DNA of 64,000 nucleotides from Escherichia phage ECO07P2: the sequence record OP172785; one strand, given 5' to 3'. The translations under genes were made by a program, and so were the position numbers. The stretch's first letter is position 1. Every line of letters starts with the position of its first letter. This document shows positions 470 to 55,893 of the stretch, piece after piece. The notes beneath the pieces were generated by a model that was not told the origin of the DNA, ran no database searches, and saw nothing but the letters and a program-made list of their open reading frames with translations.

Positions 470-1438
470 TTATTTCAGAAGAGTAACCTCAGCAATTTCT
501 TCCCAACCGTTTTTGTCGGTCATAATAAAGTCAGCAAGATAAAGAGCAGTACGCAGTGAAACATTGCGTAAACGATTAACATTGACTTTCATCCATGATA
601 ATGCTTTATAAGTTTCTTCATCAGAAAGACCGCGCTTTTGCATCATGTCGGTTGAAAGAATAACATCTTCAACCCTGACCATAATTTCTTCATTAGTGTG
701 AACACCCAAATCCAAATAAACTGAGCGGGACACTAATGCTTGTAAGTGTGGGGCAAGTTTAGTACCACGGTCTAATTCGCGGTCAATGTCAACGTTTGTG
801 ATAAAAACAATCGTTCCTTTAAATTCAAACTCACGGTCAATGCCTTTTTCTTCTAAGTAAGAAGATGCAGTGCTCCAGCAGACTTTACGGGTCTCTCCGG
901 TGTCCAGAGCAGCTTTTAGAAGATTAAGAATGTCCATATCAGAGAAAACATCCACATCATCAATCAAAAGGACAGAGTTCTCTTCACGATTATTCCAAAG
1001 CTGCTCATAAAGACCAATACCAGAGATTTTACCATTAATGCTTTTATATTCAATGTATCCATTATCATTTGCTTTATTTAAAGCTTTATCTAAAGAATAC
1101 GTTTTACCAATACCTGCTGCGCCAGAGATAATTAATGAACGAATATTTCCATTAATAATACCATTCGTCATCATTCCCATAACATTAAATCTTTTATTAA
1201 TGCGGGTTTTCATATCTTCATATGATTCTTTAACTTCTTCAACTTTTACACCATCATATGAAATATCTGATTTGTAAACCCAAACACCGCGACGTTTACC
1301 GTCAATTTCAACAAAAACTTTACCATCTCCTTGTGCATCTACCGGAGCATTATCTGGGAACCATTCGCCTAAGAGCTCAAAAGTTCCAGAGATTTCTTTA
1401 CCAAAGTAGATACCCTTATTGATAGTTACAGTTTTCAT
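470..1438 (-). CDS. P-loop ATPase, AAA-like (Walker A GAAGIGKT, Walker B LLIDDVD)
   Basis: ORF 322 aa from ATG at 1438 (track start at 1450 is a TTG); Walker A and B motifs read directly in translation; preceded by GGAGAA SD and early promoter. Confidence 0.7.
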   Translation of the reverse strand: MKTVTINKGIYFGKEISGTFELLGEWFPDNAPVDAQGDGKVFVEIDGKRRGVWVYKSDISYDGVKVEEVKESYEDMKTRINKRFNVMGMMTNGIINGNIRSLIISGAAGIGKTYSLDKALNKANDNGYIEYKSINGKISGIGLYEQLWNNREENSVLLIDDVDVFSDMDILNLLKAALDTGETRKVCWSTASSYLEEKGIDREFEFKGTIVFITNVDIDRELDRGTKLAPHLQALVSRSVYLDLGVHTNEEIMVRVEDVILSTDMMQKRGLSDEETYKALSWMKVNVNRLRNVSLRTALYLADFIMTDKNGWEEIAEVTLLK

Positions 1439-1475
1439 TTTATTCTCCAAATCTGTATCAGTAGTTGATAGTTGT

Positions 1476-1505
1476 ATAGTACCATAAAGCTTTATGCTTG
1501 TAAAC
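1476..1505 (-). promoter_or_regulatory. T4-type early promoter
   Basis: gtaaac 1500-1505, atagta 1476-1481, spacer 18, conserved downstream agtagttgatagttg block; upstream of ATPase gene. Confidence 0.65.
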
Positions 1506-1530
1506 AGTTTTGTGAAAAAATTTTTGAAAT

Positions 1531-1558
1531 AAAAAAAGGGGACCTCTAGGGCCCCCTT
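1531..1558 (-). terminator. rho-independent terminator (minus strand)
   Basis: minus-strand RNA GGGGGCC-CUAGA-GGUCCCC followed by U7; lies just after stop of ORF 1568-2053. Confidence 0.65.
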
Positions 1559-1567
1559 TGTGTTGAT

Positions 1568-2053
1568 TTATTCCATTTCTACTATATGCATGTTCTTTTT
1601 GCTATCAAAATATATGTTTTTAACTATTAACTCAGAATTAATTGGCAGTAAAAACTCTCTTTCATAATCTACCATACAAAGATTATCATAAAGCTTGTTA
1701 AGCTTATCATCGTCAGTTTGGCCAGATTCTTCAATTGCGATTAAATTTTCTAAAATGTCAATCATAGCAGTCGAATAGTCGAAAACGTTTGCATTTTTTA
1801 ACACTACTAAAACATTAGTCATATAGCGTTCTGCTGCAAACGTTTCAGCTATATGAGACTCACTGCTAAAGGAAGTTATTCTTTTAAATTTGATTCTCCT
1901 ATTAACTTCAAACTTATAAGATAGCACTTCCTCTATTGTAAGTCCTCTAAAAAGTATGTCTTTAATCTCAAGTTTGTCTTTAATGTAATCATTAACACGC
2001 TTATGATTAAAATCATTAATTTTGTTGCCAAGGCATTGCATTAAAATATGCAT
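1568..2053 (-). CDS. hypothetical protein (161 aa)
   Basis: ORF in track, tight packing with neighbours; no motif recognised. Confidence 0.55.
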   Translation of the reverse strand: MHILMQCLGNKINDFNHKRVNDYIKDKLEIKDILFRGLTIEEVLSYKFEVNRRIKFKRITSFSSESHIAETFAAERYMTNVLVVLKNANVFDYSTAMIDILENLIAIEESGQTDDDKLNKLYDNLCMVDYEREFLLPINSELIVKNIYFDSKKNMHIVEME

Positions 2054-2150
2054 TGTATTCTCCTCAATTTTTAAAGAGCAATTAATTAACTACACATATA
2101 TTATAATATGCTTTGCGATAGAAGTAAACAACTTTGTGACGTCATTTTAA

Positions 2151-2177
2151 ACAAAAAAGGGAGCCCGAAGGCTCCCT
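2151..2177 (-). terminator. rho-independent terminator with UUCG tetraloop (minus strand)
   Basis: minus-strand RNA GGGAGCC-UUCG-GGCUCCC followed by U6, immediately after stop of nucleotidyltransferase ORF. Confidence 0.7.
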
Positions 2178-2178
2178 A

Positions 2179-3189
2179 TCATTTATAATAACTTCGGTGG
2201 TTTTCAAGATAAACCCTCTCAAGGAAGTCATCCCAGAAACCCATGTCTACTTTTTGCTGCATACCGTTCTTAGAAGCTTCAATGGATGCTGCTTCTACTT
2301 GATCGACCACATCTTCCAAAAACTCTTGAACAGTTTTAAATGGATGTTTACCCAACTTCACGTCGAGAATAAATGGAGCATCTTGAAGTGGATAAACCAA
2401 GTCACCAGTTTTGTAAATTTCCAATAGTTGGAGTCCACCACGACAAGCATGACTCAGAGCTTTCCAGTCAATGCCCTCATTCGCTTCAGCCTTACGAGCA
2501 CGTTCGCCGTATTCAGCATCAAGTTTATTCAAAGACTGCTTAAGCTCAATAAGAGAAAGTGTTGTCTGATATTTACGACCCAACACAGTGTAAAACGTTT
2601 GTGGACCTGTTTTCTCATGATTATGGAACACCCATTCACAGAACTCGTTTTCTGGAAGACGATGCTTAATATCTTCAACTTTAGTGCGACGCTGCTTAAT
2701 GGAACCGTCTTCTTGGTAATCAACCCACTGATCAGGGATTTGATTAACTACTTTCAATACATCACGTAATGCGGCCAAACGAGAACCCTTGACACCATAT
2801 TTAGAAGCTTGCTTGCGGACATATCCTAAATAAGATTTCATGTTAGTTGTATAAAAACGAGAACGATTGTCTTGGATAAATTTCCATACATCAGGTAAAT
2901 CAGATTTAACCACTAGTTCAGGTGGAGTGTGGAGCATATCCAATGCTACAGTTTCACCATCTGCAGCTAATTTAAAGAAATACTTAAGACTGTATAGTTC
3001 ATGGTCAATATCATCTTTAGTGTTTTTAGATGATGTGTTGTTCGTGTTTTTACTCATATGCTCTTTAACATTTCCGATAAGAATATCGCGAGCAGGAGGA
3101 ACAAAGATTTCTTTAAAATCTACATCAGATTCTGGAGTAGAAGTTCCATAAAGATGACTACCAAAATAGCTTTTCATTACTGTTTTCAT
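2179..3189 (-). CDS. Pol-beta superfamily minimal nucleotidyltransferase-like protein (GS-x3-GT-x4-SDVD motif)
   Basis: 336 aa ORF; N-terminal FGSHLYGTSTPESDVDF matches the GS...[DE]x[DE] nucleotidyltransferase signature; long helical C-terminal region; family assignment by motif only. Confidence 0.6.
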   Translation of the reverse strand: MKTVMKSYFGSHLYGTSTPESDVDFKEIFVPPARDILIGNVKEHMSKNTNNTSSKNTKDDIDHELYSLKYFFKLAADGETVALDMLHTPPELVVKSDLPDVWKFIQDNRSRFYTTNMKSYLGYVRKQASKYGVKGSRLAALRDVLKVVNQIPDQWVDYQEDGSIKQRRTKVEDIKHRLPENEFCEWVFHNHEKTGPQTFYTVLGRKYQTTLSLIELKQSLNKLDAEYGERARKAEANEGIDWKALSHACRGGLQLLEIYKTGDLVYPLQDAPFILDVKLGKHPFKTVQEFLEDVVDQVEAASIEASKNGMQQKVDMGFWDDFLERVYLENHRSYYK

Positions 3190-3650
3190 TATTCAGCCTT
3201 ATATTCAATAACAGGACATACTTTAGCTTTACGCGCTTTTAAAAATTCGACGATAATAGATTTCTTTGGTTGAATAGGAGGTAAACCTTTATACGCCCTA
3301 TCAATATTTTCTACATGTAAAGCATAATCCTTTTTCCATTTATAATCTTTATATTTTTCATGCAGTTGTGCAGGAATAACAAATGAACCAATAATAAGTA
3401 AAACAAGCAAAATAGCAAGTATAAATGCTGATGGAATAAGAGTCCATAAACTACCAAAAATAAGCCATTTCTGCATAATTTCTGCGCAGATGATAGTTAG
3501 ACCTGCGAGTATAGTACATCCGAAAAAAGAAACGAAAAATGTAGGAATAACAATAGACCAAAAATACGCGCACAGTGTCTTAGGTCGTTTCCATTCATCA
3601 TTAAACATTTTGAATAATTTATAGTGCCAAGAGTTTTCATTAATAATCAT
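3189..3650 (-). CDS. membrane protein (predicted transmembrane helices)
   Basis: 153 aa ORF with two long hydrophobic stretches (FWSIVIPTFFVSFFGCTILAGLTIICA and WTLIPSAFILAILLVLLIIGSFVIP). Confidence 0.6.
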   Translation of the reverse strand: MIINENSWHYKLFKMFNDEWKRPKTLCAYFWSIVIPTFFVSFFGCTILAGLTIICAEIMQKWLIFGSLWTLIPSAFILAILLVLLIIGSFVIPAQLHEKYKDYKWKKDYALHVENIDRAYKGLPPIQPKKSIIVEFLKARKAKVCPVIEYKAE

Positions 3651-3652
3651 AA

Positions 3653-4174
3653 TTATCCTTTCATTGAAGGTGTAACAGTTGTTAAATACTTAATCATAGC
3701 TTCAGCTTCTGATTTTGATAATGAAATTTCTCCATTGTTTTGACGAATAGAAATAAAATCCGGATGACGGTCACCACCAGCTTTTAAAACACACATATAA
3801 GTATCAGTTTCATCTTCAATATTTGAAATAATTGAAGCAGTTCCGCATGAATGCGGTTTTTGATAAATCAATACGGCTTTTCTTCCACCGTTTGACTGTT
3901 CATAAACTTTTAACACATCAAACAAATCACTTCTTTTATCAATAGCTAAGATGTTGTTTTCATCTTCAATGTTAAATCCTTCGGATACTTCATAAAGTGT
4001 CACCCATAAATCACCTATATCGATAGTAGCATTTTCCTTTCCATGACTTTCAAGAGTATGACAAATTTTCTTGATTTCGTCATAACTCATTTTAATAATA
4101 TCATCTCCTTGAATAAGGAAGATGTCATTTTTAAATTCAATACGAATTAAACCACTTTCACTCGAAATAAACAT
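3653..4174 (-). CDS. hypothetical protein, paralog of adjacent ORF 4182-4739
   Basis: 173 aa; shares GFNIE(D/S)E and C-terminal (A/E)xxK(T/Y)YL(D/T)(S/T)V(I/T)P(T/S)M with neighbour. Confidence 0.6.
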   Translation of the reverse strand: MFISSESGLIRIEFKNDIFLIQGDDIIKMSYDEIKKICHTLESHGKENATIDIGDLWVTLYEVSEGFNIEDENNILAIDKRSDLFDVLKVYEQSNGGRKAVLIYQKPHSCGTASIISNIEDETDTYMCVLKAGGDRHPDFISIRQNNGEISLSKSEAEAMIKYLTTVTPSMKG

Positions 4175-4181
4175 ATTTTCC

Positions 4182-4739
4182 TCACTTTGAAATCATAGTT
4201 GGAATGACAGAATCAAGATAAGTCTTTAGCGCAATAGCTTCGTCTTTGGTAAATGTGACAATATGTGATCGAAAATCGTCAATTTGGCGAATAGTTAAGA
4301 CATCTCCCTCTTCATAACATTTTGATACATTTAAAAGAGTTTCATCATTCTGATTGCAAGCGTTAGTAATAATAGCATTGCAATTTTTGAGCCATTTTAA
4401 ACTATGTTTTCTTTCATTAGAATAATAAAAATATTTAATCTTAGCTATAAAATTATCCCAATTATTAATTGATAAGCATATCGACTCGCTTTCAATATTA
4501 AATCCTGGGCATAAAGAATAAAAATGAATTTTATGCTCATCATTAATGCTTACAATTTTATCAGTATAAGGTTTTTCAATTTGGGTTAAATGAATAATTT
4601 CGCTAGGCGTAAAATATAGCATATCGTCTTCTTGCGTCAAACGATACATATTATTTACTTTTTCTATAGCCAATTCACCAAAAAGTGAACTAACTTCTAA
4701 TACTAATCGTTTCATATTGATTCTCTTCGACTCACTCAC
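4182..4739 (-). CDS. hypothetical protein, paralog of adjacent ORF 3653-4174
   Basis: 185 aa; first codon at 4739 is GTG with AGGAG 8 nt upstream, alternative ATG at 4715; C-terminal similarity to neighbour. Confidence 0.5.
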   Translation of the reverse strand: MSESKRINMKRLVLEVSSLFGELAIEKVNNMYRLTQEDDMLYFTPSEIIHLTQIEKPYTDKIVSINDEHKIHFYSLCPGFNIESESICLSINNWDNFIAKIKYFYYSNERKHSLKWLKNCNAIITNACNQNDETLLNVSKCYEEGDVLTIRQIDDFRSHIVTFTKDEAIALKTYLDSVIPTMISK

Positions 4740-4874: not shown

Positions 4875-4904
4875 ACTATACCATAACCTTGCCAACTTGT
4901 AAAC
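4875..4904 (-). promoter_or_regulatory. T4-type early promoter (distal of a tandem pair)
   Basis: gtaaac 4899-4904, actata 4875-4880 (TATAGT on minus), spacer 18. Confidence 0.5.
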
Positions 4905-18718: not shown

Positions 18719-18794
18719 TGGTCGAGGCAGTAGGGATCGAACCTACGACCTAGGACTTAGAAGGTCCTTGCTCTTCCTTCTGAGCTATGCCCCG
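18719..18794 (-). tRNA. tRNA-Arg (anticodon UCU), CCA encoded
   Basis: hand-folded cloverleaf on minus strand; anticodon loop CUUCUAA; GGTTCGATCC T-arm. Confidence 0.8.
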
Positions 18795-18798
18795 TAAT

Positions 18799-18874
18799 TG
18801 GGGTGACCGATGGGAGTCGAACCCATGACTACGAGAATCACAATCTCGAGTTCTACCAACTGAACTACGGCCAC
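18799..18874 (-). tRNA. tRNA-His (anticodon GUG) with extra 5-prime G
   Basis: anticodon arm CGAGA-UUGUGAU-UCUCG; G-1 pairs with C73; T-arm GGGTTCGACTCCC. Confidence 0.7.
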
Positions 18875-18988
18875 ATTAATATCTACTCCAACAATCAAGA
18901 TGTCTTCACACGAAATTAAGAGAAGAGTGATCAGTTCAACCCCGATAATCGCGTCAAGTAGATATTAATGTGACAGTTGTCACAAATT

Positions 18989-19063
18989 TGGCGGACGTGA
19001 TAGGATTCGAACCTATAACCAATCGCTTAACAGGCGATCGCTCTGCCATTGAGCTACACATCC
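18989..19063 (-). tRNA. tRNA-Asn (anticodon GUU)
   Basis: anticodon arm ATCGC-CUGUUAA-GCGAT; T-arm ATAGG-TTCGAAT-CCTAT. Confidence 0.7.
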
Positions 19064-19067
19064 AAAT

Positions 19068-19154
19068 TGGTGGGGAGTGATGGAGTCGAACCACCCGAGT
19101 CGCAATGACAATGGATTTACAGTCCACACCGCTACCTCTACGGGATAACTCCCC
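19068..19154 (-). tRNA. tRNA-Tyr (anticodon GUA), long variable arm
   Basis: acceptor GGGGAGT/ACTCCCC; anticodon loop CUGUAAA; class II length 87 nt. Confidence 0.65.
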
Positions 19155-19167
19155 TTAATTCTTAATT

Positions 19168-19242
19168 TGGTGGCCCTGGGTGGAATTGAACCACCATCTG
19201 GCGATTATGAGTCGCTTGCTTGAACCTTCCAGCTACAGGGCC
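19168..19242 (-). tRNA. tRNA with CAU anticodon (T4 tRNA-Ile-like; Met by anticodon alone)
   Basis: anticodon loop CUCAUAA; adjacent to tRNA-Thr as the T4 Thr-Ile pair. Confidence 0.65.
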
Positions 19243-19243
19243 T

Positions 19244-19319
19244 TGGTGCTGATTGACGGAATCGAACCGCCGACCTTCTCATTACAAGTGAGTTGCTCTA
19301 CCTACTGAGCTAAATCAGC
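19244..19319 (-). tRNA. tRNA-Thr (anticodon UGU)
   Basis: acceptor GCTGATT/AATCAGC; anticodon loop CUUGUAA; T-arm GGCGG-TTCGATT-CCGTC. Confidence 0.75.
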
Positions 19320-19324
19320 AAAAC

Positions 19325-19414
19325 TGGCGGAGGCGATAGGATTTGAACCTATGAGTCGCCGGAGCGACTGCCGGTTTTCAAGACCGGTGCATTAAACCAC
19401 TCTGCCACGCCTCC
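19325..19414 (-). tRNA. tRNA-Ser (anticodon UGA), long variable arm
   Basis: anticodon arm CCGGT-CUUGAAA-ACCGG; 90 nt class II. Confidence 0.75.
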
Positions 19415-19416
19415 AG

Positions 19417-19490
19417 TCTCCATACAAGGATTTGAACCTTGGACCTCCTGATCCCAAATCAGGCGCTCTACCAAACTGAGCTACACGGAG
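19417..19490 (-). tRNA. tRNA-Pro (anticodon UGG), CCA not encoded
   Basis: anticodon arm CCTGA-UUUGGGA-TCAGG; only 2 nt from tRNA-Ser 5-prime end (dimeric precursor as in T4). Confidence 0.75.
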
Positions 19491-19500
19491 TAAATTAAAT

Positions 19501-19574
<74 letters not shown>

Positions 19575-19579
19575 AAATT

Positions 19580-19666
19580 TGGTGCGAGAAGTGGGACTCG
19601 AACCCACAAGGAAATCATTCCGCAGCATTTTAAGTGCTGTGCCTTTACCAATTTGACCATTCTCGC
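19580..19666 (-). tRNA. tRNA-Leu (anticodon UAA), long variable arm
   Basis: anticodon arm CAGCA-CUUAAAA-TGCTG; 87 nt. Confidence 0.75.
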
Positions 19667-19667
19667 G

Positions 19668-19740
19668 CTGGGAATAAAGGACTCGAACCTTTGCATCCTG
19701 GAATCAAAATCCAGTGCCTTACCAACTTGGCTAATTCCCA
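19668..19740 (-). tRNA. tRNA-Gln (anticodon UUG), CCA not encoded
   Basis: acceptor TGGGAAT/ATTCCCA; anticodon arm CTGGA-UUUUGAU-TCCAG; 1 nt from tRNA-Leu (Gln-Leu dimeric precursor). Confidence 0.75.
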
Positions 19741-54890: not shown

Positions 54891-55893
54891 AACTTACCAA
54901 TTCAATCCAAGCCGGACGAAGTACATCTTGTACCATTTTAACTAATTCCTTTTTAATCAAAGAAGGATTATCCGATTGAGTTAGAGTAATACCTTCACGA
55001 GAAGTTTCTTCCAAAATATCTTGAACAGTTAGCCCCATTACCTTTCCAAAATCTTTTGGACCAATTTCGCCAATTTTAGAAATAACGTTATTTACTCGGT
55101 TCAGTGTAACATAGCAAGCTAAAATTCCCAGCAATTTATTATCAGCTTCTGACAACTCAACTTTAGCTTTAATAGGCTTATCAGACTTTTTCTTTTCGCT
55201 AAATTTAGAGTTCTTGCATTTAATCGCTACACGATTGCCATTAGGCATCCAAGAAGGATAACAAGGTTTCAATACATATCCTTCAGCAGTAAATACTTCG
55301 CCTTTTGCTTCGGCATTCCAAACGCATTTATTTGCATCAACTAATCCAGCATGGTCTACTGTAAAATTATAATCCTGGACGACAGAATCTAAATCATTTG
55401 GCAATTTAATAAGCTCTTCAAATTTACCGCGACCTAAAAGTGGAGCCATTTTAAATTTAAATGTATTGCAGAATGATTCCATCATATAATCATCGACATA
55501 AGTTACATCACCGCTTTCCGTAGTAACAATAATGTCAAATACATAAAAGTCTTTATCGCCATAATCGACATTCTTCTGAATGCCAGGTCCAGCGAATTCA
55601 CCAAAAACTTGATAAGATACAACTGCTGAAGTTTCCATAATATCTTGTACTGCTTTAATGGAATCAGCGTAATTCTTTAGAATAATTTCATACCCAAAGA
55701 AATCTTCAGCAGGAAAAATAGGACCAGTACGTTTAGCACAAGTTACTTTATCACGCTCAATAATCAATGAAAAGTTTGTACCATGAATCTTTTCACGAGC
55801 TACCCATTCGCCGCCAGTCAATCCTAAACTGTAGAGTTTTTCAATGAATTTAGAATTGTAATGATTTTCAAGACTGCTATACTTTTTAAACAT
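54889..55893 (-). CDS. rnlB: RNA ligase 2 (RnlB)
   Basis: 334 aa; nucleotidyl-transferase lysine motif in EKIHGTNFS and motif IV/V region; same length and position as T4 Rnl2. Confidence 0.85.

Follow-up and report, generated by a model that had tools for sequence, protein, structure and literature searches.

An ortholog of T4 NrdC.11 in Escherichia phage ECO07P2 is a divergent RlaP-family nucleotidyltransferase and a candidate RNA 3'-end repair enzyme

Here we report that a 336-aa nucleotidyltransferase (NTase) of Escherichia phage ECO07P2 (OP172785), encoded in the 64,000-nucleotide stretch that we analysed and refer to as the window, is the ortholog of T4 NrdC.11 and belongs to a divergent subfamily of RlaP (PF10127). 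On balance we favour the view that NrdC.11 is a template-independent, metal-dependent RNA 3'-OH NTase of the RlaP type that restores nucleotides lost from cleaved tRNAs, a prediction for which we draw on the identity of the gene, its catalytic motif and the conservation of that motif, the NTase fold of a structure model, and the linkage of the NrdC.11 subfamily to repair genes in bacteria. The first-pass annotation of this DNA, made from the letters of the sequence, is partly supported in its overall interpretation: its call of an NTase stands, while its leading idea of signalling-nucleotide synthesis or sequestration does not. The features discussed are collected in Table 1.

Table 1. Features of the ECO07P2 window discussed in the text
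Feature	Position	Strand	Basis
nrdC.10 ortholog, 326-aa P-loop (AAA/STAND-like) ATPase	470..1450	-	PHROG 1250 at 5.6e-167
Terminator-like site of the 161-aa ORF	1559-1535		Pattern match only
161-aa ORF between nrdC.11 and nrdC.10, ADP-ribosyltransferase-like	1568-2053	-	PHROG 832 (Alt/ModA/ModB), 1.4e-23
Promoter-like site of the 161-aa ORF	2128-2100		Pattern match only
Terminator-like hairpin: 8-bp stem, 6 GC pairs, UUCG loop, TTTTTTGTTT tail	2158..2177	-	Consensus scan, pattern match only
NTase ORF, nrdC.11 ortholog, 336 aa, divergent RlaP (PF10127) subfamily	2179..3189	-	ORF call, Pfam, PHROG, AlphaFold2 model
D62-H63-E64 codons, probable third metal-binding carboxylate (D62, strand 61-67)	2998..3006	-	Conservation, profile alignment
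Catalytic motif GS...DxD, aa 9-25, FGSHLYGTSTPESDVDF (G10, S11, D22, D24)	3115..3165	-	Position; conservation; hhalign
Membrane protein, 153 aa (PHROG 944)	3189..3650	-	ORF, hydropathy, PHROG
y05I-173, second of two tandem y05I-like paralogs	4174-3653	-	Pfam T4_y05I_N + T4_y05I_C
y05I-185, first of two tandem y05I-like paralogs	4739-4182	-	Pfam T4_y05I_N + T4_y05I_C
Sigma-70-like promoter match TTTACA-17-TATAGT with TG, upstream of the four-gene run	4875..4903	-	Consensus scan, 10/12, pattern match only
tk	7264-6683	-	
tRNA cluster, 11 genes: Gln, Leu, Gly, Pro, Ser, Thr, Met(cat), Tyr, Asn, His, Arg	18719-19740	-	
rnlB (T4 RNA ligase 2) ortholog, unlinked candidate partner	54892..55893	-	tblastn with T4 RnlB, 98.2% identity

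The window is AT-rich (~35% GC) and of Tequatrovirus origin, and its region 1400-4300 shares 93-98.6% identity with many Tequatrovirus genomes, among them ECO07P3, W143, HY01 and T2. The ECO07P2 protein matches T4 NrdC.11 (NP_049709.1; in UniProt the [quoted passage not shown]) with 98.2% identity over all 336 residues, and the T4 gene occupies the equivalent genomic place, flanked by mobD.1-like genes and nrdC.10. T4 RefSeq already labels the protein "nucleotidyltransferase", PHROG 388 of the same name matches it at 1.8e-136, and its similarity to an NTase domain (COG3541) was reported in 2006 (PMC1524935). This is a named, conserved and previously annotated T4 gene whose family and predicted role are in the literature. 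The first-pass annotation had allowed that it might prove to be a well-characterised, conserved T4 core gene; conserved and named it is, well characterised it is not, its activity being only predicted. By tblastn, NrdC.11 is present in 1,513 phage records, including phages of Escherichia, Klebsiella, Aeromonas, Acinetobacter, Vibrio and Caulobacter, and an exhaustive homolog search returned 3,411 cluster representatives with E<=1e-3, 828 of which reach E<=1e-30; almost all of the alignments span the full length. Users of these records should be aware that NrdC.11 and NrdC.10 are named "thioredoxin" in many GenBank and UniRef entries, that one NrdC.11 entry is called an "HNH homing endonuclease", and that NrdC.10 also appears as a "clamp loader"; such names look like carry-over from the nrdC locus name or from adjoining genes rather than the outcome of homology.

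The Pol-beta NTase signature noted at first pass, GS-x3-G-x5-SDxD, is borne out and lies at aa 9-25. The motif FGSHLYGTSTPESDVDF reads G10-S11-x3-G15-x5-S21-D22-V23-D24 and fits the Pol-beta consensus hG[GS]x9-13DxD, and in an alignment of 128 sequences from two homolog searches, the distant members of which are just 34-41% identical, G10, S11, G15, S21, D22 and D24 are invariant. The Pfam RlaP model gives 43.6 bits (E 3.7e-11), well over its gathering threshold of 23, and because of this score and the invariance across the 128 sequences the motif is not a chance match. When profiles were aligned with hhalign, the GS...DxD lined up with the GS...DxD of classical RlaPs. The third catalytic carboxylate is more likely to be D62, as judged from the alignment: position 62 carries D or E in 128/128 sequences and corresponds in the profile alignment to D82, which is invariant in classical RlaPs, while E64 (E or D in 127/128) and the conserved D84 are also acidic. 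D84 had been picked first on conservation and gave way to D62 after profile alignment and strand assignment. In the C-terminal half of the protein the invariant basic residues R137, R230, K243, H247 and R250 would fit an RNA- or NTP-binding cleft.

An AlphaFold2 model built from the 128-sequence alignment (pLDDT 89.9, pTM 0.75) contains an NTase fold. The model comprises an alpha/beta NTase core at ~aa 1-112, helices at 118-150, a beta-rich insert at ~154-208 and a helical bundle at 213-335. The long helical region that had been described behind the motif is accordingly present in part: the helices are there, but the region is not purely helical, being interrupted by the beta-rich insert. This insert is conserved, including C203 and K206, and is absent from the published description of the PfRlaP structure.

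Membership of the RlaP family is evident in the core of the protein and ends there. PF10127 has a precomputed match in all 240 homologs listed, yet the Pfam alignment of the ECO07P2 protein covers only aa 6-134, corresponding to model positions 23-142 of 249, and hhalign of an NrdC.11-type profile against 21 classical RlaPs aligned aa 1-96 only (E 4.4e-4, probability 33%). Classical RlaPs are proteins of 271-281 aa that match model positions 1-247 at ~240 bits, whereas NrdC.11-type proteins have 320-340 aa and a core-only match of 44-49 bits. Neither Pfam nor hhalign detected full-length similarity to classical RlaPs that included the C-terminal helical domain, and that only the N-terminal ~90-130 residues are recognisably RlaP counts against reading NrdC.11 as an RlaP-type repair enzyme. 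What the two types have in common is the Pol-beta core, with its GS...DxD and an acidic residue further downstream, the plan of an NTase domain followed by a helical domain (PfRlaP being compared by its description), as can be seen from RlaPs of P. fluorescens and P. aeruginosa RtcB operons, and the association of relatives with RtcB, Pnkp/Hen1 and RNA ligases. In contrast, NrdC.11-type proteins are ~50 residues longer, carry the beta-rich insert and have their own conserved C-terminal motifs YGxR and DWKALSHAxR, and they form cluster 5 of a sequence similarity network in which classical RlaPs form cluster 1a (10.64898/2025.12.29.696909). Among phages, classical RlaPs occur in 80 records, mostly of jumbo phages infecting Pseudomonas, Caulobacter and Brevundimonas, with no Escherichia record among them; the RlaP type of T4-like phages is the NrdC.11 type only.

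The RlaP family was reportedly defined by Burroughs and Aravind (NAR 2016). The biochemical basis for the activity proposed here comes from work elsewhere on classical RlaPs only. Two Pseudomonas RlaPs from RtcB operons, PfRlaP and PaRlaP, add 1-2 NMPs or dNMPs to RNA 3'-OH ends, prefer Mn2+, and are inactive on DNA and protein (bioRxiv 10.64898/2025.12.29.696909). Given a mimic of a cleaved tRNA, they act preferentially at its broken end, and they raise the aminoacylation of a repaired tRNA that had lost one nucleotide; the PfRlaP crystal structure consists of NTase and helical domains and a C-terminal helix (10.64898/2025.12.29.696909). The same December 2025 preprint lists T4 NrdC.11 among the RlaPs, gives its function as unknown and places it in a different similarity cluster (10.64898/2025.12.29.696909). 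A corresponding activity in the NrdC.11 subfamily itself, a cleaved tRNA as its target and a counter-defence role in T4-like phages would be extensions of these results.

Bacterial genomes place the NrdC.11 subfamily among RNA-repair genes. Relatives at ~35% identity sit in Pnkp/Hen1, RtcB and Ro operons, and three full-length relatives on long contigs are 43-46% identical to the homolog of phage Cr30 and ~36% identical to the ECO07P2 protein. Two bacterial contigs carry, in this order, a small ORF, an NrdC.11-type RlaP, a classical RlaP, Hen1 and Pnkp; RtcB lies near one of these two Pnkp/Hen1 runs (L006/L007), and in a T4-like contig (L009) an RNA ligase is found two genes upstream of the NrdC.11-type gene. 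We then scanned 80 bacterial loci, one genome per species, with homologs of 30-54% identity; all counts are BLAST lower bounds. RtcB, Hen1, Pnkp, PNKP-HAD, Ro/TROVE or Rnl occurred within 5 kb in at least 18/80 loci and in at least 13 of the 47 loci with full flanks, and when a classical RlaP is accepted as a partner alongside repair enzymes the latter figure becomes at least 25/47. Pfam confirmed RtcB, Hen1, Pnkp, PNKP-HAD and TROVE beside the relatives. These neighbourhoods tie the NrdC.11 subfamily itself, beyond PF10127 in general, to RNA repair. Against an RlaP-type repair function, about half of the full-flank bacterial loci have no recognisable repair partner.

In at least 23/80 loci a classical RlaP gene lies 11-88 nt downstream of the NrdC.11-type gene on the same strand (tandems at L006 8001-9828, L008 8001-9799 and at least 23 of loci L010-L089). 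As the two adjacent proteins have only the catalytic core in common, the arrangement suggests non-redundant roles, and it argues to that extent against an NrdC.11 that simply does what classical RlaPs do. It may be, although we would lean against it, that NrdC.11-type enzymes are not plain orthologs of the classical RlaPs but a sister family with a function of its own. In that event the tandem would imply a separate step of RNA repair (for example at another end, with another nucleotide or by a heteromeric enzyme), the NrdC.11 type by itself would be a dedicated counter-defence of T4-like phages against nucleotide-excising anticodon nucleases, and the protein might work with the small membrane protein and the NrdC.10 ATPase described below. 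The related proposal that NrdC.11 acts on RNA 3' ends in a role distinct from that of classical RlaPs, for instance on another RNA target or with another nucleotide specificity, in tailing or marking host or phage transcripts, in repairing the acceptor ends of tRNAs, or in a complex with the classical RlaP as its partner where both are present, we judge to be unlikely. It would be consistent with the core-only similarity, the tandem genes, the conserved insert with C203 and K206 that goes unmentioned for PfRlaP, the division of types between T4-like and jumbo phages, and the 11-gene tRNA cluster in the same window, but there is no positive sign of a different substrate and the neighbourhoods are the same RNA-repair operons.

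Two further associations were seen in bacteria. In several alphaproteobacterial and related loci (L006 7678-8001; L008 7642-8004; L042, L046, L056, L059, L070, L075 and L087) the gene for a conserved soluble protein of 107-120 aa lies directly against the start of the NrdC.11-type gene; its members are 60-81% identical to one another, have no Pfam match and show no relation to the membrane protein of the phage. One metagenomic protein of 495 aa (P0162) is a fusion of an HD_4 (PF13328) phosphohydrolase domain with an NrdC.11-type RlaP, and an HD_4 gene (cluster c14, for example L033 8908-9525) adjoins the RlaP gene in 4-5 bacterial loci. The HD_4 domain may be an end-healing partner that supplies a 3'-OH end for the NTase.

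The other enzyme families suggested at first pass fared poorly. Searches of PDB protein sequences with the protein itself and with the 128-sequence profile gave nothing meaningful (best match MLKL, E ~1), and the closest solved structures to the model were HalB (9dbh), 3c18 and kanamycin NTase, with no cGAS, DncV-like or CD-NTase enzyme and no CCA enzyme among the structure matches. The proposal that NrdC.11 is a CD-NTase/SMODS/OAS-like enzyme or a sponge, and so produces or sequesters signalling nucleotides of host immunity, has a precedent in that T4-like phages encode anti-CBASS and anti-Pycsar proteins, and the protein does carry the generic Pol-beta motif; that motif is all that speaks for it in the protein, no CD-NTase, SMODS or cGAS/OAS profile or fold was matched, and we disfavour it as extremely improbable. 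Repair of tRNA 3' ends by a class II CCA-adding enzyme or poly(A) polymerase does not agree with the model, in which no PolyA_pol head with neck and body helical domains was found. An AbiEii relationship likewise failed, with no AbiEii/DUF1814 match, and neither AbiEi nor HEPN is encoded alongside, the neighbours being the membrane protein and an ADP-ribosyltransferase-like gene.

Nucleotidylation of a protein (in the manner of MNT/MntA, DrrA or GlnE-type AMPylation) or of a small molecule (in the manner of kanamycin NTase or LinB) is distinctly unlikely. Kanamycin nucleotidyltransferase ANT(4'), 3c18, LinB and AadA do resemble NrdC.11 in combining an NTase with a helical domain, but they share 8-12% identity with it, use small molecules as acceptors and are not linked to RNA-repair genes; across the structural matches, at 8-13% identity, the likeness reflects a common core and a generic helical bundle. 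The minimal NTase type advanced at first pass does not hold, for the NCBIfam MntA profile reaches 13.2 bits against a cutoff of 60, on the motif region alone, with no HEPN partner, and Pfam NTP_transf_2 stays below its cutoff (13.9 against 21 bits). Furthermore, the context of the relatives is RNA repair and not toxin-antitoxin, and classical RlaPs labelled RNA while leaving E. coli proteins unlabelled (10.64898/2025.12.29.696909).

The local gene order in ECO07P2, along the minus strand, is tk, rI and small mobD.x genes, the two y05I-like genes, the 153-aa ORF, the NTase, the 161-aa ORF and the ATPase. The spacings along y05I-185, y05I-173, the membrane protein gene and the NTase gene are 7, 2 and -1 nt, and a strong terminator-like GC-rich hairpin begins 2 nt after the NTase stop codon. 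Since a promoter-like site precedes these four genes and the terminator-like hairpin follows them, the NTase gene appears to close a four-gene unit, a reading of sequence patterns. The y05I-like paralogs belong to the MobD.1 family, annotated as "y05I-like putative transcription factor"; ECO07P2 has two copies and T4 has one (mobD.1) plus the homing endonuclease gene mobD. T4 differs at this point in that mobD abuts nrdC.11, where ECO07P2 has the membrane protein gene and the second y05I-like gene, and ECO07P2 also has an extra ModA/ModB-like gene between nrdC.11 and nrdC.10. Further along in the window is the tRNA cluster; T4 has eight tRNA genes, and those for Tyr, Asn and His in ECO07P2 would be extras.

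The overlap with an upstream two-helix membrane protein, as first described, is real to the extent of one base, which the TAA stop of the membrane-protein gene shares with the ATG of the NTase gene (TAATG; GAATAATGAAA). Two helices are a reasonable description without being a firm one: hydropathy gives two hydrophobic stretches of ~33 residues (aa 25-60 and 62-98) flanked by basic termini, and a low-confidence model (pLDDT 63.7) has two long helices at 26-64 and 68-120. In 78 related viral loci, defined by an NTase identity of 44% or above, a membrane-protein homolog was found upstream of the NTase on the same strand in 45; 13 of these abut the NTase gene (<=9 nt) and the others lie 350-1700 nt away with other ORFs between. 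A homolog search with the membrane protein returned 23 proteins only, all from T4-like phages, and in another T4-like contig a 30%-identical homolog lies upstream of the RlaP gene. The membrane protein is absent from T4, as mobD occupies the site, and was not found beside the NTase of Cr30 or Vibrio phage or in any of the 80 bacterial loci (0/80). A small gene abutting the NTase start was considered as a partner across all lineages and rejected, the ORFs found upstream in Cr30, Vibrio XZ1, L009 and the bacteria being unrelated and non-hydrophobic. Conserved gene order is weak evidence of pairing here because T4-like genomes are broadly syntenic; for this reason, and because T4 lacks the membrane protein and the distant homologs lack both neighbours, we treat the pairing as synteny and the membrane protein as probably a syntenic neighbour only, within T4-like phages.

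These observations also bear on whether the NTase and the membrane protein form a two-gene module, either a Hailong-like oligonucleotide-gated membrane protein or a phage decoy of one, which we regard as very doubtful. Hailong HalB (9dbh), an anti-phage NTase that synthesises oligodeoxyadenylate, is among the closest structures, but its match is confined to the NTase core at 16% identity, it is ~120 residues shorter, no sequence-family relationship is detectable, and no HalA-like partner was recognised at the ECO07P2 locus. PADLOC returned nothing for either protein. Moreover, T4 keeps NrdC.11 at 98% identity without the membrane protein, and in many phages the two genes are set apart by 350-1700 nt occupied by other ORFs.

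On the other side of the NTase, NrdC.10 (found in 1,311 phage records, jumbo phages included) has AAA/nSTAND Pfam matches that are weak and below cutoff. It lies downstream of the NTase, 100-2272 nt away, in 38/78 viral loci, and was seen beside it in 0/80 bacterial loci and not near the Cr30 or Vibrio XZ1 homologs, on which grounds we rejected the idea that NrdC.10 travels with the NTase beyond T4-like phages. The 161-aa ORF keeps an R-S-ExE-like triad (F-R36-G, S61-S66, E131-R-E133) and has its own promoter-like and terminator-like sites. T4 lacks this gene, which is labelled modA_2 or modB_2 in some records and lies downstream of the NTase in 3/78 viral loci.

Returning to the favoured function of RlaP-type repair, we envisage that host anticodon nucleases (RloC-type "cut and trim" ribotoxins) would cleave tRNA with loss of nucleotides, that NrdC.11 would add one or a few NMPs to the 3'-OH of the damaged RNA, above all of tRNA halves, and that unlinked phage enzymes, PseT/Pnkp, Rnl1 and Rnl2, would heal the ends and reseal them into functional tRNA. 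That RlaPs restore nucleotides taken out by RloC-type nucleases, before ligation, has been predicted (PMC7824862). The T4 annotation includes pseT and rnlA, and ECO07P2 encodes rnlB. Several observations weigh on the other side. In both ECO07P2 and T4, nrdC.11 is unlinked to any RNA-repair gene: no ligase, Pnkp, RtcB or Hen1 gene lies within 8 kb of the NTase in ECO07P2 or in 76/78 of the related viral loci, and the nearest repair gene in ECO07P2 is rnlB, ~52 kb off. The viral neighbours are instead the membrane protein and the ATPase, both without an assigned function. Lastly, the nrdC.11-mobD.3 block is dispensable in T4, whose deletion is tolerated under laboratory conditions (PMC9825161).

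It was in T4 that RNA repair was discovered, with PseT and Rnl1 acting against PrrC. RloC-type nucleases excise the wobble nucleotide and have been proposed to defeat repair by PseT and Rnl1. Because the idea is in print as a prediction and the gene already has a name and an annotation, NrdC.11 is best regarded as a directly testable candidate rather than as a new kind of system. Should NrdC.11 indeed re-add lost nucleotides, phage tRNA repair would have its missing third enzyme, and more than 1,500 sequenced T4-like phages would carry a new activity for counter-defence.
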